Below, piece after piece: positions 1 through 33,251 of a stretch of 35,293 bases of DNA. The DNA is from a virus (Duplodnaviria; Heunggongvirae; Uroviricota; Caudoviricetes). The notes beneath the pieces were generated by a model. The model was not told where the DNA came from and ran no database searches. It saw nothing but the letters and a program-made list of their open reading frames with translations. The position numbers and the translations under genes were made by a program. Position 1 is the first letter of the stretch. Each line of letters starts with the position of its first letter. The stretch is from the IMG/VR virus record IMGVR_UViG_2778261341_000005; one strand, given 5' to 3'.

Positions 1-1293
<1,293 letters not shown>

Positions 1294-1407
1294 TACCCAA
1301 TTTTTCTGAATCTAAAAAGCGCCTGCGGGTGGTTTTAGTGGGAGATTAACATATTGAAAATAAAGATTTTTTATTTTCATGTGTCCAGATAACGTCCATC
1401 TTTGAAA

Positions 1408-1450
1408 CAAAAAGCCCGCAGTTTTTTTACGCCGCGGGCTTTGTTTTTCT
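1408..1450. terminator. hairpin terminator downstream of serS, apparently bidirectional
   Basis: aaagcccgc ... gcgggcttt stem with A-run on the 5' side and tttgttttt on the 3' side; read on the minus strand it is the counterpart of the terminators that end hok units 2 and 3. Confidence 0.55.
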
Positions 1451-1533
1451 TTGTGACTTTTGTGTGAGGGTGCGACTTTCGACCGAACCTTTGGCAACCG
1501 GATAGCGGGGGCTTTCACCCCCGCTGCGGTTTC

Positions 1534-1674
1534 TTACGGTTTACACTGCAAGAACGCCGCAAATTCTGACCACATGATGTTAAGTCTGAACTCACACGGA
1601 GAACGGTGTATCATCCAGACGGTCAACAACATGGTTAAGCATAAAATGCTCACGATGATCGTTTTTTGCGGCAT
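1534..1674 (-). CDS. Hok/Gef-family type I toxin, copy 1 (46 aa)
   Basis: Minus-strand ATG with AAGGAG Shine-Dalgarno; product MPQKTIIVSILCLTMLLTVWMIHRSPCEFRLNIMWSEFAAFLQCKP: one TM helix then a C-E-F-R ... E-F-A-A-F block as in Hok/Gef. Six substitutions relative to copy 2 without frame disruption. Below the 60-aa track threshold. Confidence 0.7.
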   Translation of the reverse strand: MPQKTIIVSILCLTMLLTVWMIHRSPCEFRLNIMWSEFAAFLQCKP

Positions 1675-1715
1675 AGCGCTTGACTCCTTTTACAGGGAGG
1701 CGCTAACCTTCCACT

Positions 1716-1775
1716 TGTCTAGGGTAGGAAGGGTTAGGCCTCGGGTTAAACAAATGTTTTACTCGGGGCCTTTCC
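1716..1775 (+). ncRNA. putative Sok-like antisense RNA, unit 1 (boundaries approximate)
   Basis: Plus-strand TTGACT (1680-1685) and TAACCT (1704-1709) promoter-like hexamers antisense to the hok leader, then ggccucggg ... cucggggcc hairpin plus UUU. Confidence 0.3.
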
Positions 1776-1891
1776 ACATCCGGCCTTCAGGTATTCCTTC
1801 CAGCCGTCAGCCGAAAGGCACCCGCATGTAATTTACTGATTTCCCTTTGTGTGCGCAATGCTCAGTATTGAAGCTGTTGAGGGGAGACGGC

Positions 1892-1916
1892 AAAAAAAAG
1901 CCCGCATATTGCGGGC
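1892..1916 (-). terminator. intrinsic terminator ending the hok unit-2 transcript
   Basis: gcccgca-tat-tgcgggc hairpin preceded on the plus strand by A8, i.e. followed by U8 on the minus strand. Confidence 0.55.
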
Positions 1917-2006
1917 AATGAAGTCAGTACGCTAACCCAAAAGGGTGCCATATCAGCCGAACCCGGCAACCGGATAGCGGGGGGCTTTCACCCCCGCTGC
2001 GGTTTC

Positions 2007-2147
2007 TTACTGTTTACACTGCAAGAACGCCGCAAATTCTGACCACATGATGTTAAGCCTGAACTCACACGGTGAGTTGTGTATCATCCAGACAATCATC
2101 AAAATAGTTATGCATAAAATGCTCACTATGATCGTTTTTTGCGGCAT
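2007..2147 (-). CDS. Hok/Gef-family type I toxin, copy 2 (46 aa)
   Basis: Translated codon by codon from the sequence: MPQKTIIVSILCITILMIVWMIHNSPCEFRLNIMWSEFAAFLQCKQ; AAGGAG 10 nt upstream of ATG; TAA stop at 2007-2009. Confidence 0.72.
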   Translation of the reverse strand: MPQKTIIVSILCITILMIVWMIHNSPCEFRLNIMWSEFAAFLQCKQ

Positions 2148-2188
2148 AGCGCTTGACTCCTTTTACAGGGAGGCGCTAACCTTCCACT

Positions 2189-2248
2189 TGCTTAGGGTAG
2201 ATGGTCAGGGCCTCGGGTTAACATTAAAGTTGACTCCGGGGCCTTTCC
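2189..2248 (+). ncRNA. putative Sok-like antisense RNA, unit 2 (boundaries approximate)
   Basis: TTGACT 2153-2158, TAACCT 2177-2182; hairpin 2209-2243 (ggccucgg / ccggggcc with a G-U pair) followed by UUUCC. Confidence 0.3.
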
Positions 2249-2364
2249 ACATCCGGCCTTCAGGTATTCCTTCCAGTCGTCAGCCGAAAGGCACCCGCAT
2301 GTAATTTACTGATTTCCCTTTGTGTGCGCAATGCTCAGTATTGAAGCTGTTGAGGGGAGACGGC

Positions 2365-2389
2365 AAAAAAAAGCCCGCATATTGCGGGC
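2365..2389 (-). terminator. intrinsic terminator ending the hok unit-3 transcript
   Basis: Identical hairpin plus A8/T8 tract, 473 bp from the unit-2 copy. Confidence 0.55.
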
Positions 2390-2479
2390 AATGAAGTCAG
2401 TACGCTAACCCAAAAGGGTGCCATATCAGCCGAACCCGGCAACCGGATAGCGGGGGGCTTTCACCCCCGCTGCGGTTTC

Positions 2480-2620
2480 TTACTGTTTACACTGCAAGAA
2501 CGCCGCAAATTCTGACCACATGATGTTAAGCCTGAACTCACACGGTGAGTTGTGTATCATCCAGACAATCATCAAAATAGTTATGCATAAAATGCTCACT
2601 ATGATCGTTTTTTGCGGCAT
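2480..2620 (-). CDS. Hok/Gef-family type I toxin, copy 3 (46 aa)
   Basis: Nucleotide-identical to copy 2 over the ORF (shifted by 473 bp). Its upstream promoter differs from copies 1-2 but keeps TTGCAC-N17-TAAATT on the minus strand (~2776-2806). Confidence 0.68.
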   Translation of the reverse strand: MPQKTIIVSILCITILMIVWMIHNSPCEFRLNIMWSEFAAFLQCKQ

Positions 2621-2661
2621 AGCGCTTGACTCCTTTTACAGGGAGGCGCTAACCTTCCACT

Positions 2662-2718
2662 TGTCAGGTAGGAAGTGTCAGGGCCTCGGGTTAACGTTAG
2701 TTGACTCGGGGCCTTTTC
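2662..2718 (+). ncRNA. putative Sok-like antisense RNA, unit 3 (boundaries approximate)
   Basis: Same promoter hexamers as unit 2 shifted by 473 bp; hairpin 2682-2713 with a different, shorter loop than units 1-2. Confidence 0.28.
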
Positions 2719-2775
2719 ACATCCGGCCTTCAGGTATTCCTTCCAGCCGTCAGCCGAAAGGCACCCGCGCGTAAT

Positions 2776-3440
2776 TTACCTTTTACGTCCGTTACGTGCA
2801 ACGGATGACGTGGCTGTTTTTCCTTCCCCTTCGCCATCCTTTTTCGGAGCAGTTGTGCAAAAGTGTGCAAAAGTGATTTTTGCTGCCACTCCCCGCCAGG
2901 CCGCGCCAGTTCTGGCTTTCCTGATTTTTTCGTTTTCGTCGTCGGATCCTTTTTCAGATCTTCGATCGTGACGTAATTTTAAAAATCTCTTGTTATTCAG
3001 TGCATTAAATTTTTTCGGGATCCTCAGAAAGCCGGAGTTTTTGCACACTTTTGCAAAACCTTGCACAAAGTGCAAAACCATTCAGAAGGGAAAACCTCAG
3101 TAATGGCGCGCCCTGGCGGGGTGTTTTGCACCCATTTCGATTTGCAAAATTTATCGTACACAAATACCGGAGGCGTGTGCGGGGTAGCGCCGATTACGTC
3201 ACTTTACGCGTTACGTCGCCCCCGAAAATTTCCGGCCATTTGCGGCGATTCTGGGGCGCAGAAATCGTTTTCTGATGTCAGGGGATCGAATCGGGCCGGC
3301 GGGGTTATCTCTTCGTTACGTGGCGTTACGTGACGTTTTACGCGGGGATTACGTGGGGCGTTTCGTCCATCTTTTTTTCTGCTGCGGGTGGTTTTTTCGT
3401 GGTGGGTGATGTCCGGTGATGAATATTTTTTATTGTCGTG
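2776..3440. promoter_or_regulatory. non-coding block with operator-like and iteron-like repeat arrays (function unknown; possible att or regulatory region)
   Basis: No convincing ORF. Inverted copies of tgcaaaagtgtgcaaaa at ~2861-2884 and ~3040-3060 flank an AT-rich GATC-containing spacer; palindrome TTGCACaaaGTGCAA at 3061-3075; further TTGCA half-sites at ~3124 and ~3141. Direct (c)gTTACGTg repeats cluster at 2786-2806, 3193-3220 and 3314-3356. Confidence 0.35.
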
Positions 3441-3446
3441 GGAATA

Positions 3447-3476
3447 AAAAAGGCCACATTGCGCGGCCTGTTAAAA
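3447..3476 (-). terminator. intrinsic terminator at the end of the late/tail operon
   Basis: Minus-strand ggccgcgcaatgtggcc hairpin followed by ttttttatt, immediately after the stop of the 557-aa gene. Confidence 0.55.
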
Positions 3477-3483
3477 TGAATAA

Positions 3484-10815: not shown

Positions 10816-11164
10816 AGTTCACCCTGGTGTTTATGCGTCCAAAATCCTGTGTCTCTGCTGTCACATGCAGCCTGCCCGGTGCCTCTTCGTTAATGAACAC
10901 CGTCCCCGGAACCAGCCGTTCATCATCCTCAACCAGGAGGATAAGCCGGGTAATGATGTCGCTGCGCAGCGTCGGGCTGCGTTCGCCGATAAGCAGGGCG
11001 GCGATCCCGCTTTCGATAATGCTGTGCACCACGTCCTGGCCGATGCTGACCCGGTTATCACATCGCTGTGGCTCGTTTCCGCTGTTCAGCGTAAAACTGC
11101 CGTCAGTGATAAGCAGGTCGATGTAAAGCGATGGCGTGTTCATCCCGCGTAAAGCTCCGTCCAT
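10793..11164 (-). CDS. baseplate wedge protein (gp25 / gpW-like), tentative
   Basis: 123 aa; N-terminal RGMN and IGERSP (GER motif) reminiscent of gp25-like proteins; overlaps tape-measure 3' end and gpJ-like 5' end. Confidence 0.4.
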   Translation of the reverse strand: MDGALRGMNTPSLYIDLLITDGSFTLNSGNEPQRCDNRVSIGQDVVHSIIESGIAALLIGERSPTLRSDIITRLILLVEDDERLVPGTVFINEEAPGRLHVTAETQDFGRINTRVNYERETGR

Positions 11165-13326
11165 TCATCCAGTTGCCCCGGCGTCATCGGGTTCTGCGTG
11201 TTGATTGTCAGATTGCCGAACGTCCGGCTGTTGTCGATACGGGTTGAGGTGTCCGTGCGTATCTGGTTGCGTATGCCTCCGGGTGGCAGCTCTGCGCTGA
11301 TGCGGTTGCCTGCCAGTGCCGGGACGGCGGTTTCTGCAATCTGCGGAGGTACGGTGCTGCCCGTTGCGCCCCGCGTCATGGTGTTCACCTGCTCCGTGGG
11401 CTTCATGTCGATACTGATACCGGGGATTTTGTTCAGCTTTTCCGCAAGCCAGTTCCACGTCCGGTTAAACGAGTTTTTAATGACGTTCCATAAGTCCCCG
11501 AAAACGTTACCGATGATCCCCGCCATTTTCCGGAAGGATTCGACCGGGGCGGTCGGGTCAAATGCAGCCACCACGTCCTGCCACCCTCTGATGACGATGG
11601 TGAAGATGTCGATCAGGTCTCTTATTGCGCCGATCACCATTTCCAGCGGGGTAGAAATCAGGCTGACTGCGGCGGCCACCAGGCGTCCGCATGTTTCCCC
11701 GGCACGGGTGACGCTGTTCATCTGTCCCGTGGTCAGCTGTACCGGTGTAAACAGATCGGAGAAGGCACCGAACAGGGTTTTTATGCCCTGCCATACCGGG
11801 GCCAGCGCCCGTGCAATGTCGCCGAACGCGGCAGTCACCGGGCTCATGGCGTCCAGTGCGCCGGTAAAACCATCAATAAAGCCGCGAATAAAGGCTTTGA
11901 TGGGCTGCCAGAACTTAATGGCTACCACCACCAGAGCGGCGATGGCGGCAACAACCAGGAGGACCGGGGCGCCCATGGTCAGAAACGACACGCCCGCCAG
12001 ACGCGCGGCAAGACTGGTGGCAATGATGACGCTGCGTACTTTTGTGAGTGCGAGCGTGTACAGACCCCAGGCTGCCCTGGCGCCCTTTATGATGGCCTTA
12101 TGGCCTTCCATGATGAAGCTGAACACACCCAGCACGATGTTCGTGACCGCACCGGCTGCGCCCAGCGCCAGCATGGTCAGCGTGATGTAACCCAGCCAGC
12201 GGGCGATGTTCGGGAACATGTTCAGCCAGCGCACGAACGTCGCGCCGATATCGGCAAAACGGCCAGCCAGTGGTGCGAGAATGGGGTAGAGGGCGTTACC
12301 GATGGCGGCCCGGATGTTGTAGAAGGAGGCCACAAGGCGGTCCCACGGGTCGGTCATGGCTTCCGCCATTTCCGTGGCACGCTTCATGCCGTCATTACGC
12401 CCCAGCGCTGATATGCTCCGGTTAAGCATTTCCTGCTGTCCCCAGAGTTTTTTAATCACGTCCGCACCACTGCCGAAGGCGTCATCCAGCGCCTGTTGTG
12501 CCGCCACGTTACCCTCAATGTTCCTGCCGAACCTCGCCTGCAGACGGTCGAGGATGTCACCCATGGGTAAAATCTTCCCGGTGGCATCGACGAAACTCAT
12601 CCCCATTTTTTGTGCGGCAGCGGGGGCACTGCGCAGGAACTCCTCATAGATGCCTGATGCCTCGGTACCCATGGTCCGTGACAGGGTGCCCAGTATGGCA
12701 AACTGCTCTGCCATGCTGACGCCAAAATCCGCGCCAGCGTTTTTGGTGCCCTCAATAAGCTCCTGCATGGTGCTCATTTCCACGCCGAACTGCTGAACCA
12801 TCCACGCGGTTTTACCAGCCAGATCTTCAGCAAAACCCACGGCACCCATGGCAGAAAACTCACTGCGGAAACGGGCACCCATGGCGGCAAGGTAAGTACT
12901 CGCCTCTTCACTGCTGACGCGGGCAGCCACGGCCAGGGTACTGGTTGCTGCCGTCACACGGGGTAAATCCCCGTCGCTCAGCCCGTCCAGTGCGCCGCGA
13001 ATATGCCATGCGGAACGGATGATCTCCGTGGAAGACTGACCGAATGCGGTCCCCAGTTTCATGGCCTGCGTGGTGAGGGCGGTCAGCGCCTGCGCTCCGA
13101 CGCCTTTGGCCTCAAGCTCGCTCAGCGCCTTCTGCATCTCCCACGCCGGATCCATTGCGGCGCGGATACCTTCAGCCACACCCCACAGTCCGGCCACACC
13201 CACACCGATACGCGCGAACGCGCCCTGCGAGCGTTCGGCGAATCCCGTCACGGATTCCTGAACCTGCCGCAGCGGGCGGGTAAGCTGGTCTGTCAGATTG
13301 ATAATGAAATCCAGCTGGCTGGCCAT
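11140..13326 (-). CDS. tail tape measure protein
   Basis: 728 aa, Ala/Gly-rich with internal hydrophobic segments; preceded by a chaperone gene with a frameshift site. Confidence 0.85.
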   Translation of the reverse strand: MASQLDFIINLTDQLTRPLRQVQESVTGFAERSQGAFARIGVGVAGLWGVAEGIRAAMDPAWEMQKALSELEAKGVGAQALTALTTQAMKLGTAFGQSSTEIIRSAWHIRGALDGLSDGDLPRVTAATSTLAVAARVSSEEASTYLAAMGARFRSEFSAMGAVGFAEDLAGKTAWMVQQFGVEMSTMQELIEGTKNAGADFGVSMAEQFAILGTLSRTMGTEASGIYEEFLRSAPAAAQKMGMSFVDATGKILPMGDILDRLQARFGRNIEGNVAAQQALDDAFGSGADVIKKLWGQQEMLNRSISALGRNDGMKRATEMAEAMTDPWDRLVASFYNIRAAIGNALYPILAPLAGRFADIGATFVRWLNMFPNIARWLGYITLTMLALGAAGAVTNIVLGVFSFIMEGHKAIIKGARAAWGLYTLALTKVRSVIIATSLAARLAGVSFLTMGAPVLLVVAAIAALVVVAIKFWQPIKAFIRGFIDGFTGALDAMSPVTAAFGDIARALAPVWQGIKTLFGAFSDLFTPVQLTTGQMNSVTRAGETCGRLVAAAVSLISTPLEMVIGAIRDLIDIFTIVIRGWQDVVAAFDPTAPVESFRKMAGIIGNVFGDLWNVIKNSFNRTWNWLAEKLNKIPGISIDMKPTEQVNTMTRGATGSTVPPQIAETAVPALAGNRISAELPPGGIRNQIRTDTSTRIDNSRTFGNLTINTQNPMTPGQLDEWTELYAG

Positions 13327-13327
13327 G

Positions 13328-13791
13328 TCACCTTCCGTTAAATGCGATCGCTATACCTTCAGCGGTCTTGTTGGCGCGGGTACGGGCAAAATATTCATCC
13401 AGCCAGATGGCCCGGGCGATGCTCTCTTCGTCGTCCGGCTCTCCGGGGAGGTAGTGACGCCGCAATGCCAGATACTGCTCAAGGGGATTGCGGCGGATGC
13501 TTTCGACCCGCGCGGTCAGTTTTTTAACTCAATCTCCAGTTTCGGGGAGTAAACCTCGTTAATCTTCTCGACGATCTGCATCTCACAGCCCGGATAACGC
13601 GCAATCAGGTCAGCCAGTGCGTCGCGGCTGGCAGGCGTCACGATGCGGTTAAGATAGGTGCTCATCGGCGCCACCTTGTTGGTCATCGTGATTTCGTTGA
13701 TGAGGTTGTTAAATGCCGTTTTGTTCGGTTCAAAGCTCAGGGTTACGCCCGCAACGGACAGGATGATGGTGCCGGTGTTCTTCGTGGTCAT
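13328..13791 (-). CDS. tail assembly chaperone, predicted -1 frameshift product (E+E'-like, ~154 aa)
   Basis: After a -1 slip at A_AAA_AAC (plus coordinates 13519-13525) the reading frame stays open for 63 codons and stops at TGA 13328-13330, overlapping the tape-measure ATG (13324-13326). Confidence 0.5.
13516..13791 (-). CDS. tail assembly chaperone (gpE-like, 91 aa)
   Basis: 91-aa ORF immediately upstream of the tape measure; ends ...GAG TTA AAA AAC TGA with slippery heptamer A AAA AAC. Confidence 0.6.
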   Translation of the reverse strand: MTTKNTGTIILSVAGVTLSFEPNKTAFNNLINEITMTNKVAPMSTYLNRIVTPASRDALADLIARYPGCEMQIVEKINEVYSPKLEIELKN

Positions 13792-14024
13792 TGCAGTTTC
13801 TCCGTGTTTCGTATGGTTTCCACCAGGCTGTTATGCCTGGCGGCACATTCGGTGTAGCGGCTCGTGAGGGTTCGCAGTGCCGCATCAAAATCAGCGCCCG
13901 TCGGGCCTGCCAGTCTCGGCAGTGTCTTCGGGCATTCCGTCAGCTGGTTTTCCTGCCAGGGTACGCTCAGCGGCTTCAGCACGGGCGTTGAACAGCCGGA
14001 CGTAATCATCAGTAGCGCACACAT
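13788..14024 (-). CDS. o-spanin (Rz1-like lipoprotein), start approximate
   Basis: ORF in an alternative frame overlapping the 3' part of the Rz-like gene; signal peptide with lipobox (LLMITSGC). Confidence 0.5.
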   Translation of the reverse strand: MCALLMITSGCSTPVLKPLSVPWQENQLTECPKTLPRLAGPTGADFDAALRTLTSRYTECAARHNSLVETIRNTEKLQ

Positions 14025-14277
14025 TGCGGAATACCGGGCGGACGGTTTCCGTGTGAATAACGCGTTCAGTGTGAATTTCATTGCCCTTTAACGCCTCCAG
14101 CCGTTTTTCCAGTATGCGGGCGGACTGCTGCCCGGCTTCTGTCACCGCCCGTCGCGTGGCTTCCATGGCTTCCTGTTCGGCAAGCACCACCCTGGCGTCA
14201 TGCCAGTCATGGGCCAGCCAGCCCGCCCACATGGCGGCAAAGAGGATCACCAGGCAGCCCGCCAGCTGTTTCATCAT
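13891..14277 (-). CDS. i-spanin (Rz-like)
   Basis: 128 aa, N-terminal TM segment then charged/helical periplasmic domain; start overlaps the endolysin stop; embedded Rz1-like frame. Confidence 0.65.
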   Translation of the reverse strand: MMKQLAGCLVILFAAMWAGWLAHDWHDARVVLAEQEAMEATRRAVTEAGQQSARILEKRLEALKGNEIHTERVIHTETVRPVFRNVCATDDYVRLFNARAEAAERTLAGKPADGMPEDTAETGRPDGR

Positions 14278-14612
14278 TTCACCCCGTTGTGCTCAAGGCT
14301 GAAATGATTGCCGTCTGCCCGGCTGAAGCGTCCGCCCCATGTGCCGCCGATGGATTCCCAGTATTCCCCCAGCGGCCTGTAGGCGTCGGTGTCGGTCTGG
14401 TATTCGCCGTTAATAAACAGGTTGAAGTCCACCGCGAGGCGCAGGGTGTGAAGGCTGTTGCGGATGCCTTTTCCGGTTTTCGCATTCAGTGCTGCCTGCT
14501 CCGGCGTGCGGTATGCCTCACCGAAGGTCAGGCGATAGCCGTGCTCCTGCGCCCAGTGAATAAGGTCGGCAATCATGACGGCAAACAGCTGTTGTTTTTC
14601 GCTCAGATTCAT
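14274..14612 (-). CDS. endolysin, peptidase M15 family (L-alanyl-D-glutamate peptidase type)
   Basis: 112 aa with HTLRLAVD ... DGNHFSLEH (His-x6-Asp ... His zinc-ligand pattern of M15 endolysins). Confidence 0.75.
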   Translation of the reverse strand: MNLSEKQQLFAVMIADLIHWAQEHGYRLTFGEAYRTPEQAALNAKTGKGIRNSLHTLRLAVDFNLFINGEYQTDTDAYRPLGEYWESIGGTWGGRFSRADGNHFSLEHNGVK

Positions 14613-14662
14613 GGGGTATCTCCTGTGCGTTATACAGGTTCAGGGAAGGTGAAATGTAAGGC

Positions 14663-14968
14663 TTATGGGTCATTTCTGCGTTCCTTATGCTTCAGGTAGC
14701 GGTCTGCCAGACGGCAAAAGCATTCTTCAATAAAGGCGCTGCCCATAATGCCCAGCGCGCACGCCAGACCGACCACAACCAGTTCCGGCATGTCCGGAAA
14801 TTTAAACAGCGGAATGGCGGCAACCGGCGCCACGGCAGAGCCCATAATCATTCGCCCGATAAGCAGACGGGCTGTGATGCGATCGCGGCTCACCATGAGA
14901 CGCCCCAGCCCGATGGCGGCACCGATGATAATCAGTTTTGCCAGGAGTGAAGTCTGACCGTCCGGCAT
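14663..14968 (-). CDS. holin (putative, 3 TM segments)
   Basis: 101 aa with three hydrophobic helices and a charged C-terminus; directly upstream of the endolysin. Confidence 0.6.
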   Translation of the reverse strand: MPDGQTSLLAKLIIIGAAIGLGRLMVSRDRITARLLIGRMIMGSAVAPVAAIPLFKFPDMPELVVVGLACALGIMGSAFIEECFCRLADRYLKHKERRNDP

Positions 14969-14972
14969 GGCA

Positions 14973-15434
14973 TCACCCCTTCAGATCGCGGGTGTCACGG
15001 GCTGACAGGTAGGGCACGCCGTCAATGCTGATAAAGTCCGGGCTTGTGACCATGAACTTGATTTTTTTCGTGGTCTTTCCGGCTTCGCCTGCGCTGATGT
15101 TCACCACGTCCGACAACATGGGGACGCAGCCGAACACCTCGATTTTTTCCTCCTCGCTGCCGTTGTTGGCATAAAAGAGAAAATCCTTTTCAGGAATGGC
15201 GCGCCACGACCCCGCAGAGCGGGCCACGGCACCAAACTTTTTAAAGTTCTGTGCGTCGACTTCCACCTCCACATCGGCAGAAACAGAACCACGGGTGTAG
15301 CCGTTCGGCACGCCGCGCGTCTGTGCCACGGCGCTGTTGTCGGTGATGGTGACGGTGGCGCTTTCCACGTGGATCATGATCCCGTCGTAGTTGATATCAA
15401 ACGCGCCGCCGCTGATACGTTCATTTCCGGCCAT
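14973..15434 (-). CDS. tail tube protein (FII-like); start placed at internal ATG 15432-15434
   Basis: About 153 aa following the sheath gene; GGAG 8 nt upstream of the ATG; track ORF extends to 15464. Confidence 0.5.
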   Translation of the reverse strand: MAGNERISGGAFDINYDGIMIHVESATVTITDNSAVAQTRGVPNGYTRGSVSADVEVEVDAQNFKKFGAVARSAGSWRAIPEKDFLFYANNGSEEEKIEVFGCVPMLSDVVNISAGEAGKTTKKIKFMVTSPDFISIDGVPYLSARDTRDLKG

Positions 15435-15435
15435 G

Positions 15436-16581
15436 TCAGATCTCCAGTGCTGTGTCGAGTTCAATACTTACGCCAATGGCTTTTGCGCTCTCGTAGGGGC
15501 GTACCACAATGTAAATCTGCACGTGTGTACTGCTGGTCCAGACGATGGTGATATCCCCGTCCTGTGGCGGTTTAACCTCGCCGGGGAACGGTACGCCGTT
15601 AATCTCCGTGGCGAGCGCCATTTCACGCAGCGTGCGGCTGAAATATGTCTGGCTGGCGGCAATGCTGCCCGGTGTGCTGTTGAGCGCGCGATCCGCAAGG
15701 CGGGCAATGGCGCGCAGACGTACACGGCGGGAGACCTTATCCACCACGCGCACGTTTTCGATGACCTGGTAATCGCCACCCTCCACATCAAGGGTGCGTC
15801 CGTCTGACCAGTAGAGCCCGTCGAAATCGTGATACCACATGGGCACGCTGAAGCGTTTGCCTTCCAGCGAGCGCAGCGTGGCCAGCTCAAGGGGCTGTTT
15901 CTTGCCGTCCTGCGGGATCTCATCGTTACCCATCGCCACCAGGGCACCGGTTGCCACACGTGCCGGACTGTCCGCAACGGTGACGGAAGGATTACAGAGA
16001 CGGCCCGCCAGTACGCCGGGCTCATTTCCCCATAAGCGGGGAACCACCATCACGCCAGGTGCTGCCACGCCGTCCTGTATGGCACTGATGCGGGTGACGT
16101 ATGCCGCCCATGCCTCATCCTTGCCCGGTCCGGCCACGCACAGCATGAACCAGACAAAACGGCCATAAGCGGACTGAAGCAGGGCGCGGGTTTCGGTGGC
16201 GCGGTTAACGGCATCTTTGGCCGTGATGTCAATGGCAATCACCACGCCCTCGGCAGAAGCAATGGTCTGCGCTTTTTTCACCGCGTCCACCCATGCGGCG
16301 TTAGCGTCGCCGCCCTCCGGTGCCGGGGGTTTGGGTTCAGACAGAACGTGAACATAGGCAAACCAGTTCTGGCCACCGTTGGCGATTGCGGCGGTAAGCG
16401 TGGATTTAAGCAGGCTTTCATCCGGTCCCAGCACGTCGTCCAGGTCGGTCTCAGGGGAGACGGAAAGGGTGTTACCTGTGTTCTTTTTGCCATAGCCCAC
16501 AAAAAGCAGCGTGCGCTCCACTTCACGGGTGGCACCGTTGAAACGGTTCTGATGGCTTACGGTTACATTCGGCCAGCTCAC
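15436..16581 (-). CDS. tail sheath protein (FI-like)
   Basis: 381 aa, position and size as P2 FI upstream of the tube gene; no motif recalled with certainty. Confidence 0.55.
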   Translation of the reverse strand: MSWPNVTVSHQNRFNGATREVERTLLFVGYGKKNTGNTLSVSPETDLDDVLGPDESLLKSTLTAAIANGGQNWFAYVHVLSEPKPPAPEGGDANAAWVDAVKKAQTIASAEGVVIAIDITAKDAVNRATETRALLQSAYGRFVWFMLCVAGPGKDEAWAAYVTRISAIQDGVAAPGVMVVPRLWGNEPGVLAGRLCNPSVTVADSPARVATGALVAMGNDEIPQDGKKQPLELATLRSLEGKRFSVPMWYHDFDGLYWSDGRTLDVEGGDYQVIENVRVVDKVSRRVRLRAIARLADRALNSTPGSIAASQTYFSRTLREMALATEINGVPFPGEVKPPQDGDITIVWTSSTHVQIYIVVRPYESAKAIGVSIELDTALEI

Positions 16582-21162: not shown

Positions 21163-21308
21163 TATGGTCTCTTTTACGTGAAAATCTGAAGAAACTGCGG
21201 TGAGTGTCGGGATTTTTACGGCAGGGGGCTACTGACTTAATTCGGTTGCTTTCGGATAACACGGAATAGCCGAACACAGCCGAAATTCTCTGCCTGAATG
21301 CGGACCGG
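21163..21308. promoter_or_regulatory. divergent late promoter region between O and P operons (putative)
   Basis: Only intergenic space between the divergently transcribed head operons; no clean TGT-N12-ACA Ogr-type dyad could be confirmed. Confidence 0.35.
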
Positions 21309-23132: not shown

Positions 23133-24181
23133 GCAAGAAACGCAGAAACAAAACGTCACGCGTGACGAAAAAAGCATTCACGCCTGCACGTGGCAGCACA
23201 ATCACCTTCGGTCAGCCGGAACCGGTACTGACCACCGGCACGGATTACCACAACATCTGGTATGACAACGAATATAACCACTGGCAGCTGCCGATTAACC
23301 GTCTGGCACTGGCGCAGCTCCCGAACCTTAACGCCCAGCACGGTGGGGTACTGTATGCCCGTCGTAACATGGTGGCGGGGGGCTATACCGGTGGTGGTCT
23401 CACAACGGACCAGATGGAACAGGCGGTGTTTGACTACCTGTTGTTCGGCGATCTCGCTCTGCTCAAGGTGCGTAACGTATTCGGCGACGTCGTGGCACTT
23501 GAGCCGCTTCCGTCGCTGTATCTCCGGCGCCGCAAGACCGGCGAGTTTGTGGTGCTTCAGGAAGGGCCCGCGCTGGTCTATGTGCCGGAAGATATTATCT
23601 TTCTGCGGATGTATGATCCGCGCCAGCAAATTTACGGCCTGCCGGACTATATCGGAGGCATCCATTCGGCGCTGCTGAACAGTGAGGCCACCCTTTTTCG
23701 TCGTCGTTACTACAACAACGGGGCGCATATGGGGTTCCTGCTGTATACCAATGATCCCGGAATTACCACGGAGATGGAGGATGAGATCCGCGAGAAGGTG
23801 GCGGAGTCCAAGGGACTGGGAAATTTCCGCAATCTGTACATCAATATCCCTAAAGGGGCACCGGACGGGGTGAAAATTATCCCGATTGGTGAGGTGAGCG
23901 CCAAGGATGAATTTTCAAACATCAAGGGGATCAGTGCCCAGGATGTGTTTACAGCACACCGTTTTCCTGCCGGGCTTGCGGGTATTATCCCAACAAACGG
24001 AGCCACCATCCCCAACCCGGAGACGACGCGTGAAACGTACCGCAAGGATGAGGTGATACCGCTTCAGCGTAAAATCATGAATGCCGTGAACAGCGATCCC
24101 GATATACCGGAACACCTTCACCTCCGTTTTGATGCAGACGCCGGGCATGTGGCGGAAGAAAAAGTGGTGCCGGTCGGGTAA
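23129..24181 (+). CDS. portal protein (gpQ-like)
   Basis: ATLFRRRYYNNGAH and GLGNFRNLYINIPKGAPDGVKIIPIGEVSAKDEFSNIKGISAQD match P2 Q blocks; start ATG 23129-23131 overlaps the P stop. Confidence 0.9.
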   Translation: MSKKRRNKTSRVTKKAFTPARGSTITFGQPEPVLTTGTDYHNIWYDNEYNHWQLPINRLALAQLPNLNAQHGGVLYARRNMVAGGYTGGGLTTDQMEQAVFDYLLFGDLALLKVRNVFGDVVALEPLPSLYLRRRKTGEFVVLQEGPALVYVPEDIIFLRMYDPRQQIYGLPDYIGGIHSALLNSEATLFRRRYYNNGAHMGFLLYTNDPGITTEMEDEIREKVAESKGLGNFRNLYINIPKGAPDGVKIIPIGEVSAKDEFSNIKGISAQDVFTAHRFPAGLAGIIPTNGATIPNPETTRETYRKDEVIPLQRKIMNAVNSDPDIPEHLHLRFDADAGHVAEEKVVPVG

Positions 24182-24218
24182 AATGTCCTCCCCGGGATAC
24201 ATGTTATCGGGAGGTAAG

Positions 24219-24482
24219 ATGCGGATTTTTAAAGCCCGGTGTCCGGACTGTGGCGCACCTGCTGTCATCCGGAAGACAGACTGGAAAACCCCTGAACTTG
24301 CGGATCTGTACTGTGCATGCAGTGATGTCGAATGCGGGCATACCTTCGTCTGTACGATGACCTTTTCCCACACACTCAGTCCCGGTGCCCGCTCCGGTCG
24401 CAATCTGGTGAAGTTCCTGGTGGATACCATGCGGCCGGAAGATCGCCGGTATGCGCTTGAACTTCTGTCGCGGCATTCCTGA
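24219..24482 (+). CDS. Ogr/Delta-family zinc-finger late transcription activator
   Basis: 87 aa; C-x2-C-x22-C-x4-C (Cys8, Cys11, Cys34, Cys39); GGAGG Shine-Dalgarno upstream of ATG 24219. Confidence 0.8.
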   Translation: MRIFKARCPDCGAPAVIRKTDWKTPELADLYCACSDVECGHTFVCTMTFSHTLSPGARSGRNLVKFLVDTMRPEDRRYALELLSRHS

Positions 24483-24499
24483 CGCGCTTCGCTTGTCTG

Positions 24500-24542
24500 C
24501 TGCTTCACCGGGGCAAAAAGAATTTTTGCCCCGGTGAAGCAG
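24500..24542. terminator. perfect 20-bp-arm palindrome (3-nt loop) between convergent genes; putative bidirectional terminator
   Basis: ctgcttcaccggggcaaaaa-gaa-tttttgccccggtgaagcag; no flanking U-tract, so terminator function is an inference. Confidence 0.4.
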
Positions 24543-24544
24543 CT

Positions 24545-25108
24545 TCATGAAAAATCTGGTACTGAATACAGTGGTATAACCTGAAATCCGTTACACTTCC
24601 AGGACTGCGCTATATCTGGTGACTGCGTGATGGCGGGTAACGGGATTCTGTCATTACAGGTCACCCATGCCTTTGGCTCAGAGGTCAGGATCATTAACGC
24701 AATGCGGTAACTTTGTAGCCTGGCCTCATCATCCTCTGAAAGCCCGAACGGGATATCTGATTTTACCTCATCCATCTGTTCGATTCTCTTCCCTAAAAAT
24801 ACCGCGAGGAAGTTTCTGCTCTCCTGGCATAAGGCCATTTCCGGTATTGTGTACAGTGATTCAACATGTCGGCCTGCATGGTTCCAGGCTTTCACAGCGA
24901 CATCGTGTCGTGTAATGTCGAAAGAAAGGCTTTCTTTGCCCGGAGTGGGTGATCTCCATGCTACCGCCTTTGCGGTAAGTGCCTCCAGTGCAATACGGTG
25001 TACGCATAAGAGCATGAGGGTGTCATCGTCAGGAATCGCCAGTGTGTTTATTTTTTTCAAGCTGATCAATTTCATGGAGGTTATATTTTTTAGTTGTCTT
25101 CTTTTCAT
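24545..25108 (-). CDS. hypothetical protein (187 aa), lower-GC cargo gene
   Basis: Start placed at ATG 25106-25108 with AGGA Shine-Dalgarno (track ORF extends to 25240 over the upstream small gene); no motif recognised. Confidence 0.45.
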   Translation of the reverse strand: MKRRQLKNITSMKLISLKKINTLAIPDDDTLMLLCVHRIALEALTAKAVAWRSPTPGKESLSFDITRHDVAVKAWNHAGRHVESLYTIPEMALCQESRNFLAVFLGKRIEQMDEVKSDIPFGLSEDDEARLQSYRIALMILTSEPKAWVTCNDRIPLPAITQSPDIAQSWKCNGFQVIPLYSVPDFS

Positions 25109-28497: not shown

Positions 28498-28901
28498 TCC
28501 CCGGCAGTCGCCGCCTGAAACGCCGCGCGGTACAGCACGAGAAGGCGCTGGTATTCACCGATAAAGTCTTCTGCGGTGTATATGCCTTTCACGGCCACGC
28601 TGTGGTTTGTCATTTCCAGAACAAGCGTCATCTCTGACGACGACCAGCTGATGGCGGTGCTGTCGGTTCCGTTGATGTGAAATAAACCAAAACCATCACC
28701 ATCACCTTTCACGTCCACGCGGTAACGGTCGTCAACGGTGAAGGAGAAATCCCCGTATGTGGTGACGCGTCTGGCGGCCCGTTTACAGGCGCGGCGGTAA
28801 TAGTCGTGCCAGTCGTTCAGGCGGGAAGCCAGCCGGGGATCCACTGCCCACATCCAGTTAAAAAAATCCTGAATATCTGAAAGTCCCTTAACGCTCTTCA
28901 T
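28485..28901 (-). CDS. hypothetical early protein (138 aa)
   Basis: Overlaps the start of A by 13 nt; no motif. Confidence 0.45.
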   Translation of the reverse strand: MKSVKGLSDIQDFFNWMWAVDPRLASRLNDWHDYYRRACKRAARRVTTYGDFSFTVDDRYRVDVKGDGDGFGLFHINGTDSTAISWSSSEMTLVLEMTNHSVAVKGIYTAEDFIGEYQRLLVLYRAAFQAATAGECDA

Positions 28902-28969
28902 GAGAACCTCCGGTAACAGACGTGCGGAAGCCTCCCGCGCACGGGTGCGGGATGGCTTCAGGATGTTGT

Positions 28970-29197
28970 TTAGTGGTGGTGTTGCTGGTTGATGAGGCTT
29001 TGCAGTTCTGCCATATCTTCGGCGAGATAGCTGAAGACAGCAGCGCAGTAACGGTTTGATAGCGCGTGCGTGCGCTCATGCAGCATGTTGATATGCATGA
29101 TTTGCGCGACGCGTGATGCGCGCCAGAGTCTGCGGTTGATTTCAGTGCGGATGTGAAGACGCTCAGCGCGGGCGCGCTGTTGCCTGCGGTTTGCCAT
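28970..29197 (-). CDS. hypothetical early protein (75 aa, basic)
   Basis: Preferred over the overlapping 206-aa ORF 28888..29508, whose product is low-complexity S/T/R-rich. Confidence 0.4.
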   Translation of the reverse strand: MANRRQQRARAERLHIRTEINRRLWRASRVAQIMHINMLHERTHALSNRYCAAVFSYLAEDMAELQSLINQQHHH

Positions 29198-29376
29198 GGT
29201 GTTTGGCCTCTTGTAGTAAGTTCTGAAAACTCACCATCCAGAGCTGCGAAACAGTGGGTGGCGAGACGTACGAGGTTCGCAGTACCGGCTACAAGAGATC
29301 CCGGCCCGACCGAAGTCGGCCCCGTACGCCCCGCCATAATTCTGACGCGAAAAAGACGTGGCGATACAGTACGCAC

Positions 29377-29397
29377 AAAAAAACCGCTGGCGCGGTT
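29377..29397 (-). terminator. intrinsic terminator inside the early region (putative)
   Basis: Plus strand aaaaaaa + accgctggcgcggt: read on the minus strand a GC hairpin followed by T7. Confidence 0.4.
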
Positions 29398-29519
29398 GTG
29401 CGCTCTTGTAGTCGGCAGGCTGCGAAACCCGGCACCCGTTTTATGAGGTGCAGCGGGAATGTAACCTGACTGATTGCGGCATGGCAAGCGGTTTTTTTGT
29501 GTGTGCATGTTCTGGTTTC

Positions 29520-31907: not shown

Positions 31908-32015
31908 ATCGGAAAACCCCGTTTAAGTTAAATGAAAATCAGTGCCGGGATGTTTAACCACGCCCGGCGCGTGGTATTCTGGTGTTTCCACACAACCAGA
32001 AAAAAGGTAACTAAC

Positions 32016-32339
32016 ATGATTGATAAAAGCGTTAAGGACGCTATCACTGAATACCTGGTTAGCATTTACACAACTAATCTTGCTGTGGCTCCTGTTGATA
32101 AGTTGACCGACCCAAGAGACTCAGTGGGAGTGGTGTCCGATCTGCTTATTTCGCTCCTCATTAGCGAACTTCCCGATGATAAAAGGGATGCATTGATGAA
32201 AACTGCGTCAGAAATTTTGCGTCAGATAGAGGGGCAACAAGCCTTTGCTCCCTATGCCGTGAATATAAGGACACGCTTTCATAGTATTAATCATCTTGCG
32301 TGCTTTATTCGCGCCTCTAAAGACAAACCAGATCTCTGA
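32016..32339 (+). CDS. hypothetical protein (107 aa), AT-rich cargo cassette
   Basis: Start placed at ATG 32016; convergent with and overlapping the 3' end of the 172-aa gene; no motif. Confidence 0.4.
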   Translation: MIDKSVKDAITEYLVSIYTTNLAVAPVDKLTDPRDSVGVVSDLLISLLISELPDDKRDALMKTASEILRQIEGQQAFAPYAVNIRTRFHSINHLACFIRASKDKPDL

Positions 32340-32835
32340 CTTGTTCAACAATATATTTTTCCACCCCTTCTTTGACTGGCAGGTTCCGGTCAAGGGAGGG
32401 GAAAAGAATCAATGGTTTTTGTAAAAATCCCATTAACGTCGATAAAAACTCAATTTTCACATTGAAGCCTTCTGATTTTCGTCGCATTATTTCGCGTTGT
32501 ACGATTGGCCACATGTAGTCCAGGTTAATTTCCTTTAGCTCCGCAACATAATTAAGGTATGCCTCGCACCCCTGAATGCTTACAGGTCTAAAAGAAATAT
32601 CCAGATAATTATCAGGAATAATCGTACTGGTTGAATAAATAATTCCACCCACAACCCTATCTTTGTGCTTTATTGCTCTGACAAAAAATGTTTTGCCTTC
32701 TAAATCCCTTTCTGTTGCCAGCCAGGGGTCTCCTGTTATCAGGCAATCCTCATCAATGGCGATTACTTCGCCAGCCTTACTCCCGTGTTCGCTGTATTTC
32801 TTATGCATACCTTCTTCTTCTGGTGTAATCGTCAT
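32317..32835 (-). CDS. hypothetical protein (172 aa), AT-rich cargo cassette
   Basis: Visibly AT-rich coding sequence relative to flanking phage genes; no motif recognised. Confidence 0.5.
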   Translation of the reverse strand: MTITPEEEGMHKKYSEHGSKAGEVIAIDEDCLITGDPWLATERDLEGKTFFVRAIKHKDRVVGGIIYSTSTIIPDNYLDISFRPVSIQGCEAYLNYVAELKEINLDYMWPIVQREIMRRKSEGFNVKIEFLSTLMGFLQKPLILFPSLDRNLPVKEGVEKYIVEQVRDLVCL

Positions 32836-32855: not shown

Positions 32856-33251
32856 TTATTCCGTCGTTTTGCTTTTGTAAATAGTGGTTTTATTAAGTGC
32901 CATTTCTCCGAATATATCCACAGCCTGATCAACGGGCAGATTAATCATTATTCCACGGGTTGCGTATAGCATTATTCCGATGCATCCATTTTCTCTACTT
33001 TCGCAAAAGTGCCCGAACTCTGCTTCTGGTTTAAGTATCAGGTCATCAATGTTTTCATTCGCTTTTAGCTTTGAACAAAAGTTAATTAATCCTTCAAGCT
33101 CTTTGTGTAACTCGCTATAGGTTGTTGTGATTGTTATTTTCGGTGAGCCTTCCAGATGCATCAGTATCGTGGCGTCCTTGTGTTCCTCTTTCAGGAGGCT
33201 TAACTGCTTAAGGACGGTTGCGGTTTTTTCTGATTTATTTTTGCCGCTCAT
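32856..33251 (-). CDS. hypothetical protein (131 aa), AT-rich cargo cassette
   Basis: Visibly AT-rich; lies directly downstream of the Cox-like gene; no motif recognised. Confidence 0.5.
   Translation of the reverse strand: MSGKNKSEKTATVLKQLSLLKEEHKDATILMHLEGSPKITITTTYSELHKELEGLINFCSKLKANENIDDLILKPEAEFGHFCESRENGCIGIMLYATRGIMINLPVDQAVDIFGEMALNKTTIYKSKTTE

Follow-up and report, generated by a model that had tools for sequence, protein, structure and literature searches.

The four lysis genes found on the minus strand at positions 13788-14968 of the analysed window (35,293 nucleotides of a Caudoviricetes genome, IMG/VR record IMGVR_UViG_2778261341_000005) very probably make up the ordinary lysis module of an Escherichia coli prophage of the Peduoviridae, belonging to the HP1 subgroup and related to Irrigatiovirus. 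The module occupies the standard position of this subgroup within a long late operon. This location, between the tail tube and tail assembly chaperone genes, is already known and is canonical for the HP1 subgroup. Beyond correct annotation, the importance of the arrangement is slight. P2 is a poor template for HP1-group prophages, from which it differs in the tail genes and in the position of the lysis module as a lineage trait.

The lysis cassette and its proteins

The cassette contains holin, endolysin, Rz-like and overlapping Rz1-like open reading frames. Tube and sheath genes lie upstream; the tail assembly chaperone and then the tape measure genes lie downstream, all in the same orientation:

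15436..16581, minus strand: tail sheath, HP1 type (DUF2586; PF10758, E 2.6e-129; PHROG 907 'tail sheath', E 1e-146)
14973..15434, minus strand: tail tube, HP1 Orf24 family (PF10772 Phage_HP1_Orf24, E 2.8e-51)
14663..14968, minus strand: holin, class I, P2 Y family, 101 aa (PF04550 Phage_holin_3_2, PHROG 175)
14622..14673, minus strand: stub with about 16 codons (MTHKPYISPSLNLYNAQ) from the 5' end of an otherwise deleted N6/N4 DNA methyltransferase gene
14274..14612, minus strand: endolysin, small soluble M15 (VanY/LAS-type) zinc peptidase, 112 aa (PF13539 Peptidase_M15_4)
13891..14277, minus strand: i-spanin, Rz/LysB-like, 128 aa (PHROG 1152); its ATG overlaps the endolysin stop (ATGA)
13788..14081, minus strand: o-spanin, Rz1/LysC-like lipoprotein, 97 aa, +1 frame (PHROG 2425, 456); its stop overlaps the chaperone start (ATGA)
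13516..13791, minus strand: tail assembly chaperone, P2 gpE equivalent (PF10963 Phage_TAC_10, E 9.2e-31)
13519..13525, minus strand: -1 slippery heptamer A_AAA_AAC, ending immediately 5' of the chaperone TGA stop
13328..13518, minus strand: predicted -1 frame extension of the chaperone, 63 aa, P2 E' equivalent; ends 1 nt short of the tape measure ATG
11140..13326, minus strand: tail tape measure protein (PF10145, PHROG 28)

The limits of the cassette and the identity of its genes (a holin with three transmembrane segments, an M15 endolysin, an Rz-like i-spanin and an overlapping Rz1-like lipoprotein) had been proposed in a first-pass annotation, and Pfam and PHROG matches, hydropathy and the lipobox confirm them. 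Its placement of these genes between tube and chaperone also holds, with Phage_HP1_Orf24 upstream and Phage_TAC_10 downstream. An NCBIfam search with the cassette proteins returned no name above threshold.

The holin matches PF04550 (E 1.2e-19, 71 bits for a cutoff of 25) and PHROG 175 'holin' (E 8.6e-31). Three hydrophobic segments, at about residues 8-26, 35-53 and 62-80, were delimited by a Kyte-Doolittle scan, which is crude and stands in for a dedicated predictor. The C-terminus is charged, with six K/R and five D/E among the last 25 residues. The protein is 69% identical to the SI7 holin and, over its full length, 37% identical to P2 Y. The endolysin matches PF13539 (E 3.5e-10, 40.7 bits for a cutoff of 25) as well as PHROGs 1768, 465 and 2649, all named 'endolysin', and carries the zinc and catalytic motifs H55-x6-D62 and D100-x2-H103. 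A hydropathy scan of all 112 residues, N-terminus included, gave no hydrophobic window. A sequence search of the PDB with this protein yielded only a spurious match (0.008, to an NRPS carrier domain). A single-sequence AlphaFold model was obtained with a pLDDT of 68; three of its five top Foldseek matches in the PDB are M15/LAS peptidases (the Ply500 catalytic domain, LdcB and the T5 endolysin), at non-significant E values of 0.19-0.45.

The i-spanin matches PHROG 1152 'Rz-like spanin' (E 1.8e-30), has an N-terminal hydrophobic segment at residues 5-23 and is 60% identical to SI7 gp13. The o-spanin matches PHROG 2425 (E 7.8e-22) and PHROG 456 'Rz-like spanin' (1.6e-5). It carries the lipobox ITSG|C30, and SI7, ESSI-2 and P2 LysC all share its Cys30, Cys50 and Cys79 in their homologous frames. 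Its frame covers the 3' half of the i-spanin gene, with 191 nt of overlap and 103 nt beyond. The pair is thus of the 'overlapped' P2 lysB/lysC type, and not embedded. Scores of the o-spanin against the P2 LysC models are below their cut-offs (27), at 19.5 bits for PF23793 and 19.3 bits for NF038368. It would work like LysC, but it is not filed as a LysC equivalog. The homologous frame of Yersinia phage vB_YenM_324 is annotated 'O-spanin'; in the genome annotation of these E. coli prophages, the o-spanin frame is left out.

Tail genes and gene order in the HP1 group

The sheath is 67% identical to that of SI7 and 48% identical to HP1 orf23, and has no P2 match. For the tube, the start was taken as the ATG at 15434, following the RefSeq annotation of a sister prophage; the mechanically derived open reading frame extends to a TTG at 15464. 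Homologues of the tube occur in 75 phage records, all of them with HP1-group hosts.

The end of the chaperone gene has the features of a programmed -1 frameshift. A_AAA_AAC is found at the same position in SI7, HP1, K139 and phiO18P, and phi3 carries the variant A_AAA_AAG 30 nt before the chaperone stop. A slippery site followed by an open -1 frame of 60-63 aa is present in all six phages checked (A_AAA_AAC in five, A_AAA_AAG in phi3). The distal part of the extension corresponds to the open reading frame 13328-13465, annotated as a stand-alone 'DUF6890' protein (PF21830, E 1.3e-21). As read from the sequence, this 'DUF6890' frame is predicted to be the chaperone's -1 frameshift extension, of the P2 E/E+E' type, which the genome annotation of these E. 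coli prophages presents as a separate protein.

For nine of the ten HP1-group genera checked, namely those of HP1, K139, phiO18P, F108, ESSI-2, phi3, SI7, vB_YenM_324 and ev239, the annotation gives the order sheath, tube, lysis genes, chaperone, tape measure; yong1, the tenth, has unnamed genes in the slot. For HP1, the order was taken from the GenBank record and from the literature (PMC7312051). There, hol and lys lie between ORF24 (the tube) and ORF25, in a late transcript, and have been characterised experimentally as encoding a pinholin and a SAR endolysin (PMC7312051). The tube-lysis-chaperone order of the subgroup has been described (PMC7312051, PMC10612066, PMC2771037). The ACA phages are a known exception to it. 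The first-pass annotation had seen in this order a rearrangement peculiar to the prophage, and this view has to be abandoned: the same order is annotated in HP1 and eight further genera, and the tail is of HP1 type. Close relatives with an identical order belong to a standard, characterised lineage, the HP1 subgroup. The contrast drawn with P2 was right, since P2 has its lysis genes between X and R/S, and FI/FII after the fibre genes. Comparison of gene order around the cassette gives the same picture, the order matching that of HP1-group genera (9/10) and differing from that of P2.

Contents of the tube-chaperone slot

The slot itself is constant throughout the subgroup, but what it holds is mosaic. 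The enterobacterial phages of the HP1 group share the four-gene cassette of this prophage. In HP1, K139 and F108, the slot holds an HP1-type holin and an endolysin of the lysozyme family, and in phiO18P a lambda S-type holin and a methyltransferase. In the prophage studied here, the 50-nt gap between holin and endolysin is filled by the methyltransferase stub, and the junction supplies the ribosome-binding site of the endolysin, CAGGAG. Sister E. coli prophages have an intact 753-bp methyltransferase gene at the same point; BLAST comparison with them delineates a 700-bp indel, and alignment a common 5' end. The presence or absence of the methyltransferase within the cassette is a small, clean case of moron turnover. 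A PADLOC search of the accessory open reading frames gave no defence match.

These observations raise the question of whether the tube-chaperone junction is a cargo slot, where the lysis cassette and morons (the DNA methyltransferase, a DksA-like zinc-finger gene) are exchanged horizontally, so that the cassette has a history different from that of the flanking tail genes. The chances of this are about even. Three holin families (HP1-type, lambda S-type and P2 Y-type) and at least two endolysin families (GH24 lysozyme and M15) are found in the slot. Prophages whose flanks are 98-99% identical differ in having or lacking the methyltransferase, and phiO18P has another methyltransferase there. 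The nearest relative of the holin outside the HP1 group is P2 Y. The M15 endolysin is 79-86% identical to the same-slot endolysins of SI7, ESSI-2, YenM_324 and ev239, where the sheaths are only 58-67% identical. The published non-conservation of holin and endolysin among close relatives (PMC8537503) also argues for exchange. However, fast evolution and swapping of lysis genes are general to all phage groups. In any case, it complements, and does not replace, the explanation of the cassette as the standard HP1-subgroup lysis module.

The deletion could also be taken as a mark of decay, the prophage being cryptic and its cassette out of use. The loss of the 700 bp that took the methyltransferase out of the cassette was counted in favor of this possibility. 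Nevertheless, it is improbable: the structural and lysis open reading frames are all intact, with good ribosome-binding sites, and the deletion itself recreates a ribosome-binding site for the endolysin. Moreover, near-identical copies persist in several genomes and at two attachment sites. Of 5,426 complete E. coli genomes, 12 contain near-identical prophages and another 18 gave more distant matches.

Transcription and packing of the late operon

The genes of the cassette are tightly packed. The tube stop and the holin start are 4 nt apart, the holin ribosome-binding site being AAGGGG, and ATGA overlaps occur at the endolysin/Rz and Rz1/chaperone junctions. From this layout, the four lysis genes are probably coupled translationally to their neighbors. 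Two other regions of the window are relevant to transcription:

21163..21308, no strand assigned: intergenic region separating the divergently oriented scaffold (minus strand) and large terminase (plus strand) genes, with a nested TTCGG...CCGAA dyad
3451..3469, minus strand: terminator-like hairpin (8-bp stem, 5 GC pairs) and T run (TTTTTATT), directly 3' of the last tail gene

A scan for sigma-70 promoters gave scores at or below chance, with nothing credible within the cassette. Sites for a P2 Ogr-type activator, TGT-N12-ACA, occur at chance level (8 found, 7.3 expected), and the presumed late promoter region contains no such site. No further copy of the divergent region's TTCGG...CCGAA dyad occurs within the tail operon, and there is thus no sign of an internal late promoter. 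The consensus scans gave no excess of promoters or terminators, and a single strong minus-strand terminator, at 3469-3451. By analogy with the PO/PP promoters of P2, the divergent region is probably the late promoter region. The late operon with the lysis cassette probably ends at the hairpin. Since there is neither room nor signal for a promoter or terminator of its own, the cassette would be transcribed together with the head and tail genes. To judge from gene spacing and consensus scans, this transcript would start in the probable late promoter region, near 21.2 kb, and end at the 3.45-kb terminator.

One may go further and propose that selection has favored two features of the layout, the start of the holin gene 4 nt after the highly expressed tube gene and the ATGA overlap of o-spanin and chaperone. 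Translational coupling would then make the dose of holin, and with it the timing of lysis, depend on synthesis of the tail tube. The same junction would be the subgroup's preferred swap slot for lysis genes as well as for morons, namely the methyltransferase and the DksA-like zinc finger. This combined proposal is unlikely.

Relationships of the head, tail and immunity genes

The head module has the order Q, P | O, N, M, L (portal, large terminase | scaffold, capsid, small terminase, gpL), which is that of both P2 and HP1. Its proteins match Phage_GPO, Phage_cap_P2, Phage_term_smal, Phage_GPL and Terminase_5/6. Identities to P2 are 30% for the capsid, 41% for the terminase, 41% for the C repressor and 54% for the integrase. 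The P2-type head and immunity region recognised in the first-pass annotation is thus borne out. The tail has the features of the HP1 subgroup, with a DUF2586 sheath, a Phage_HP1_Orf24 tube, DUF2590 and J-like baseplate proteins, and no similarity to P2 FI/FII. Tblastn comparison of sheath, tube and baseplate with P2 gave no match. Overall, protein identities are 47-86% with SI7 and 25-59% with HP1, and P2 matches only the head, holin, replication, integrase and repressor proteins.

A recent mosaic, in which modular recombination joined a P2 head and immunity region to a rearranged tail-lysis region, is very unlikely. It would account for the detection of P2 homologues for the head and immunity/integration genes and for none of sheath, tube and baseplate, as well as for an integrase and a repressor slightly closer to P2 than to SI7. 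However, head and tail proteins rank the relatives alike, SI7 first, then HP1, then P2, and head and tail are thus not incongruent among the relatives compared. The identical gene order in nine genera also argues against a recent event. HP1-like tail genes have no similarity to those of P2 (PMC2771037), and the tail modules of the HP1 and P2 subgroups are deeply divergent, the difference in depth between head and tail being ancient and lineage-wide (PMC10612066). Of the modular recombination first suggested for this prophage, the recent mosaic has to be given up, and the term is defensible only for the separation of HP1-type from P2-type tail modules, which is ancient and already published.

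Proposed lysis route

Family membership suggests a canonical three-step lysis. The P2 Y-like three-helix holin would build up in the inner membrane and trigger at a set time, giving large holes. The signal-less 112-aa M15 zinc peptidase would then cross these holes and cleave the peptide stems of the peptidoglycan. Finally, the Rz-like inner-membrane spanin and the Rz1/LysC-like outer-membrane lipoprotein would disrupt the outer membrane. Lysis as in HP1, where a pinholin depolarises the membrane and frees a membrane-tethered SAR endolysin, is extremely unlikely even if the cassette shares its slot with that experimentally characterised pair (PMC7312051), because the endolysin has no N-terminal hydrophobic segment that could serve as a SAR helix and is an M15 peptidase instead of a Phage_lysozyme protein, and because the holin is of the P2 Y family, with three hydrophobic segments, and not of the HP1 holin family PF16080.

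Comparison with known systems

P2 (Y-K-lysA-lysB-lysC) has a homologous holin (37-39% identity), the same overlapped LysB/LysC spanin architecture and a cassette that also lies within a late morphogenetic operon. In contrast, the P2 cassette is located not at the tube-chaperone junction but between X and R/S, with FI/FII after the fibre genes (P2 record). In addition, the P2 endolysin K has no tblastn match to the M15 peptidase, lysA has no equivalent in this prophage, and the o-spanin falls under the LysC model cut-offs.

Haemophilus phage HP1 (Hpunavirus) has the same order, orf23 (sheath), orf24 (tube), hol, lys, orf25, orf26, orf27, and the same A_AAA_AAC site. Identities are 48% for the sheath, 52% for the tube, 36% for the chaperone (orf26), 43% for the -1 extension and 30% for the tape measure. 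However, the contents of the cassette are unrelated, HP1 having a pinholin of the HP1 family and a GH24 SAR lysozyme (PMC7312051). Immunity is of the CI type in HP1, whereas this prophage has a P2 C-like repressor.

The sister E. coli prophages differ by the methyltransferase between holin and endolysin, of which this copy has no more than the stub. Salmonella phage SI7 (Irrigatiovirus), ESSI-2, vB_YenM_324 and ESSI2_ev239 have the same cassette, made up of a Y-type holin, an M15 endolysin, Rz and an overlapping Rz1, in the same slot. Within this set, the whole-genome synteny comparison was confined to SI7. At the nucleotide level, a 6.4-kb query matches SI7 over 20% of its length with about 73% identity, and the protein identities are the 47-86% given above. 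These levels indicate that the prophage represents a separate species or a genus-level lineage.

Lysis Genes Between the Tail Tube and Chaperone Genes

The lysis cassette is made up of four minus-strand genes located between the tail tube gene and the tail assembly chaperone gene. On this point, ORF, Pfam, and PHROG evidence bears out the first-pass annotation.

Genes of the lysis cassette (13788-14968)
14663-14968, minus, holin, 101 aa; Pfam Phage_holin_3_2 (71 bits vs. a cut-off of 25), PHROG 175 "holin"
14274-14612, minus, endolysin, 112 aa; Peptidase_M15_4, above threshold
13891-14277, minus, i-spanin, 128 aa; PHROG 1152 "Rz-like spanin", single N-terminal hydrophobic helix
13788-14081, minus, +1 frame, Rz1-like o-spanin, 97 aa; lipobox ITSG/C30

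Three hydrophobic segments and a charged C-terminus characterize the holin, whose alignment with P2 gpY covers the full length (37% identity). The endolysin carries the motifs H55-x6-D62 and D100-x2-H103; its N-terminus has neither a hydrophobic segment nor a SAR-like helix. A PDB sequence search with this protein found no relative, and when a model predicted from the single sequence (pLDDT 68) was used to search for similar folds, Ply500, LdcB, and the T5 endolysin came up in the top five, no match being significant. The o-spanin frame covers the last 191 nt of the Rz gene and continues for another 103 nt. It scores below the curated LysC cut-offs; its Cys30, Cys50, and Cys79 are common to the equivalent frames of Salmonella phage SI7 and ESSI-2 and to P2 LysC. 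SI7 also has this frame open, at 62% identity, although it is missing both from the SI7 annotation and from the RefSeq annotation of a near-identical (sister) E. coli prophage.

According to Pfam, the cassette is preceded on the 5' side by the sheath (DUF2586) and then the tube (Phage_HP1_Orf24) genes, and followed on the 3' side by the chaperone (Phage_TAC_10) gene, a "DUF6890" ORF, and the tape measure gene. The block is tight. Four nucleotides separate the tube stop from the holin ATG (ribosome-binding site AAGGGG), ATGA overlaps join the endolysin stop to the Rz start and the Rz1 stop to the chaperone start, and the sole gap, 50 nt long, separates holin from endolysin. Scans for consensus signals gave no excess of promoters and one convincing minus-strand terminator (3469-3451), directly 3' of the last tail gene. 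From this spacing, the cassette is inferred to belong to a single late operon (~17.7 kb), which would start in the intergenic region between the divergent scaffold and terminase genes (21163-21308) and carry, in order, head, tail-completion, sheath, tube, lysis, chaperone, tape measure, baseplate, and fiber genes. The presumed late promoter region lacks the P2-type Ogr site TGT-N12-ACA. A nested dyad, TTCGG-N5-TTCGG...CCGAA-N5-CCGAA (21241-21284), lies within the same intergenic region and is a candidate late-activator binding site in this lineage. An Ogr/Delta-like zinc-finger gene is found on the plus strand 3' of the portal gene (24129-24548; Pfam E 2.5e-15); a longer opposite-strand ORF that overlaps it (24204-24548) is probably spurious.

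Gene Order in the HP1 Group and Relationship to P2

The tail-lysis order had been read as rearranged with respect to P2. However, the arrangement sheath, tube, lysis genes, chaperone, tape measure recurs in the annotation of nine genera of the HP1 group of Peduoviridae. It is that of Haemophilus phage HP1 (orf23, orf24, hol, lys, orf25, orf26, orf27) and of SI7, K139, phiO18P, ESSI-2, Pseudomonas phi3, Pasteurella F108, and Escherichia ESSI2_ev239; in Yersinia vB_YenM_324, the gene names read, in precisely this sequence, holin, endolysin, Rz-like spanin, O-spanin, tail assembly chaperone. In a tenth genus (yong1), small unnamed genes occupy the position between tube and chaperone. In HP1, hol and lys are located between ORF24 (tail tube) and ORF25 on a late transcript, and the two genes have been experimentally characterized (PMC7312051). 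Therefore, the order is standard in characterized relatives, and the placement of the cassette is a feature already known for the HP1 subgroup among P2-like phages.

The modular recombination also suggested by the first-pass annotation holds only as an ancient, published, lineage-wide event. Peduoviridae are split by their tail proteins into the HP1 group, including Irrigatiovirus, and the P2 subgroup, and one clade was proposed to have taken up a much older paralogue of the tail module (PMC10612066). HP1-like viruses have a capsid gene order in common with P2 and tail genes without similarity to P2 (PMC2771037). Here, the closest deposited phage is SI7 (Irrigatiovirus, Peduoviridae). In tblastn comparisons, head proteins are 51-78% identical to those of SI7, 33-53% to those of HP1, and 27-41% to those of P2; tail proteins are 47-85% identical to those of SI7 and 25-59% to those of HP1, with no P2 match for sheath, tube, and baseplate. 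Head and tail thus rank the relatives alike, the difference lying solely in how deep the split from P2 is. The integrase, at 54%, and the C-like repressor, at 41%, also resemble those of P2.

Host Sites and Accessory Regions

Host serS forms the start of the window (1-1293), the remainder being prophage. Of 5,426 complete E. coli genomes, 12 have near-identical copies, inserted either at serS or in the ytfP-ppa interval, and a further 18 have more distant matches; prophages at ytfP-ppa in other strains have a different integrase end. In the annotation of the matching E. coli genomes, the ~2.2 kb that separate serS from the end of the tail operon (within 1-3483) encode three Hok/Gef toxins as well as hypothetical proteins.

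In the early region, Rfam matches to C4 antisense RNA (81 bits) and the Hfq-binding RNA isrK (65.5 bits), above the gathering score, lie at 29254-29451 (minus), where they either overlap an Ash-like/transcription-regulator-like ORF (28888-29508) or fall at its 5' end. This arrangement suggests a P1/P7-style antisense-controlled antirepressor module. Three ORFs adjoin the Cox-like gene:

31932-32339, plus, ORF
32317-32835, minus, ORF
32856-33251, minus, ORF

They have no match in Pfam, PHROGs, or PADLOC, nor to SI7, HP1, or P2, and are possibly accessory cargo.

A Probable Frameshift Extension of the Chaperone

A -1 slippery heptamer, A_AAA_AAC (13519-13525, minus), immediately precedes the chaperone TGA stop. 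The -1 frame continues without a stop for 63 codons, takes in the DUF6890 ORF, and terminates 1 nt short of the tape measure start (13328-13525). The same site and extension are found in SI7, HP1, K139, and phiO18P, and in phi3 as A_AAA_AAG. Because of this conserved site and open frame, DUF6890 looks like an E'-type extension that frameshifting would add to the tail assembly chaperone. RefSeq annotates the ORF as a separate "DUF6890 family protein."

Comparison With Known Lysis Systems

Across the group, sequence comparison indicates that the slot between tube and chaperone is conserved and its contents are mosaic. SI7, ESSI-2, YenM_324, and ev239 have the same cassette as here, with endolysins 79-86% identical, whereas the slot holds an HP1-type holin and a GH24 lysozyme in HP1, K139, and F108, and a lambda S-type holin and a methyltransferase in phiO18P. 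The holin-endolysin gap of the present prophage (14613-14673, minus) keeps the ~16 first codons (MTHKPYISPSLNLYNAQ) of an N6/N4 DNA methyltransferase gene, which is intact (753 bp) at the corresponding position in sister prophages of E. coli, for example that in NZ_AP045168; a 700-bp deletion joins the stub to the endolysin ribosome-binding site. The phiO18P methyltransferase, distantly related, is also located between hol and lys.

Family membership and topology point to a canonical holin-endolysin-spanin route as the most likely lysis pathway. A class I, P2 Y-like holin would build up and then trigger, the soluble M15 zinc peptidase would pass through the holes and cut peptidoglycan peptide stems, and an overlapped LysB/LysC-type spanin pair would disrupt the outer membrane. 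In contrast to this cassette, that of HP1, in the same slot, pairs a SAR lysozyme with a pinholin (PMC7312051).
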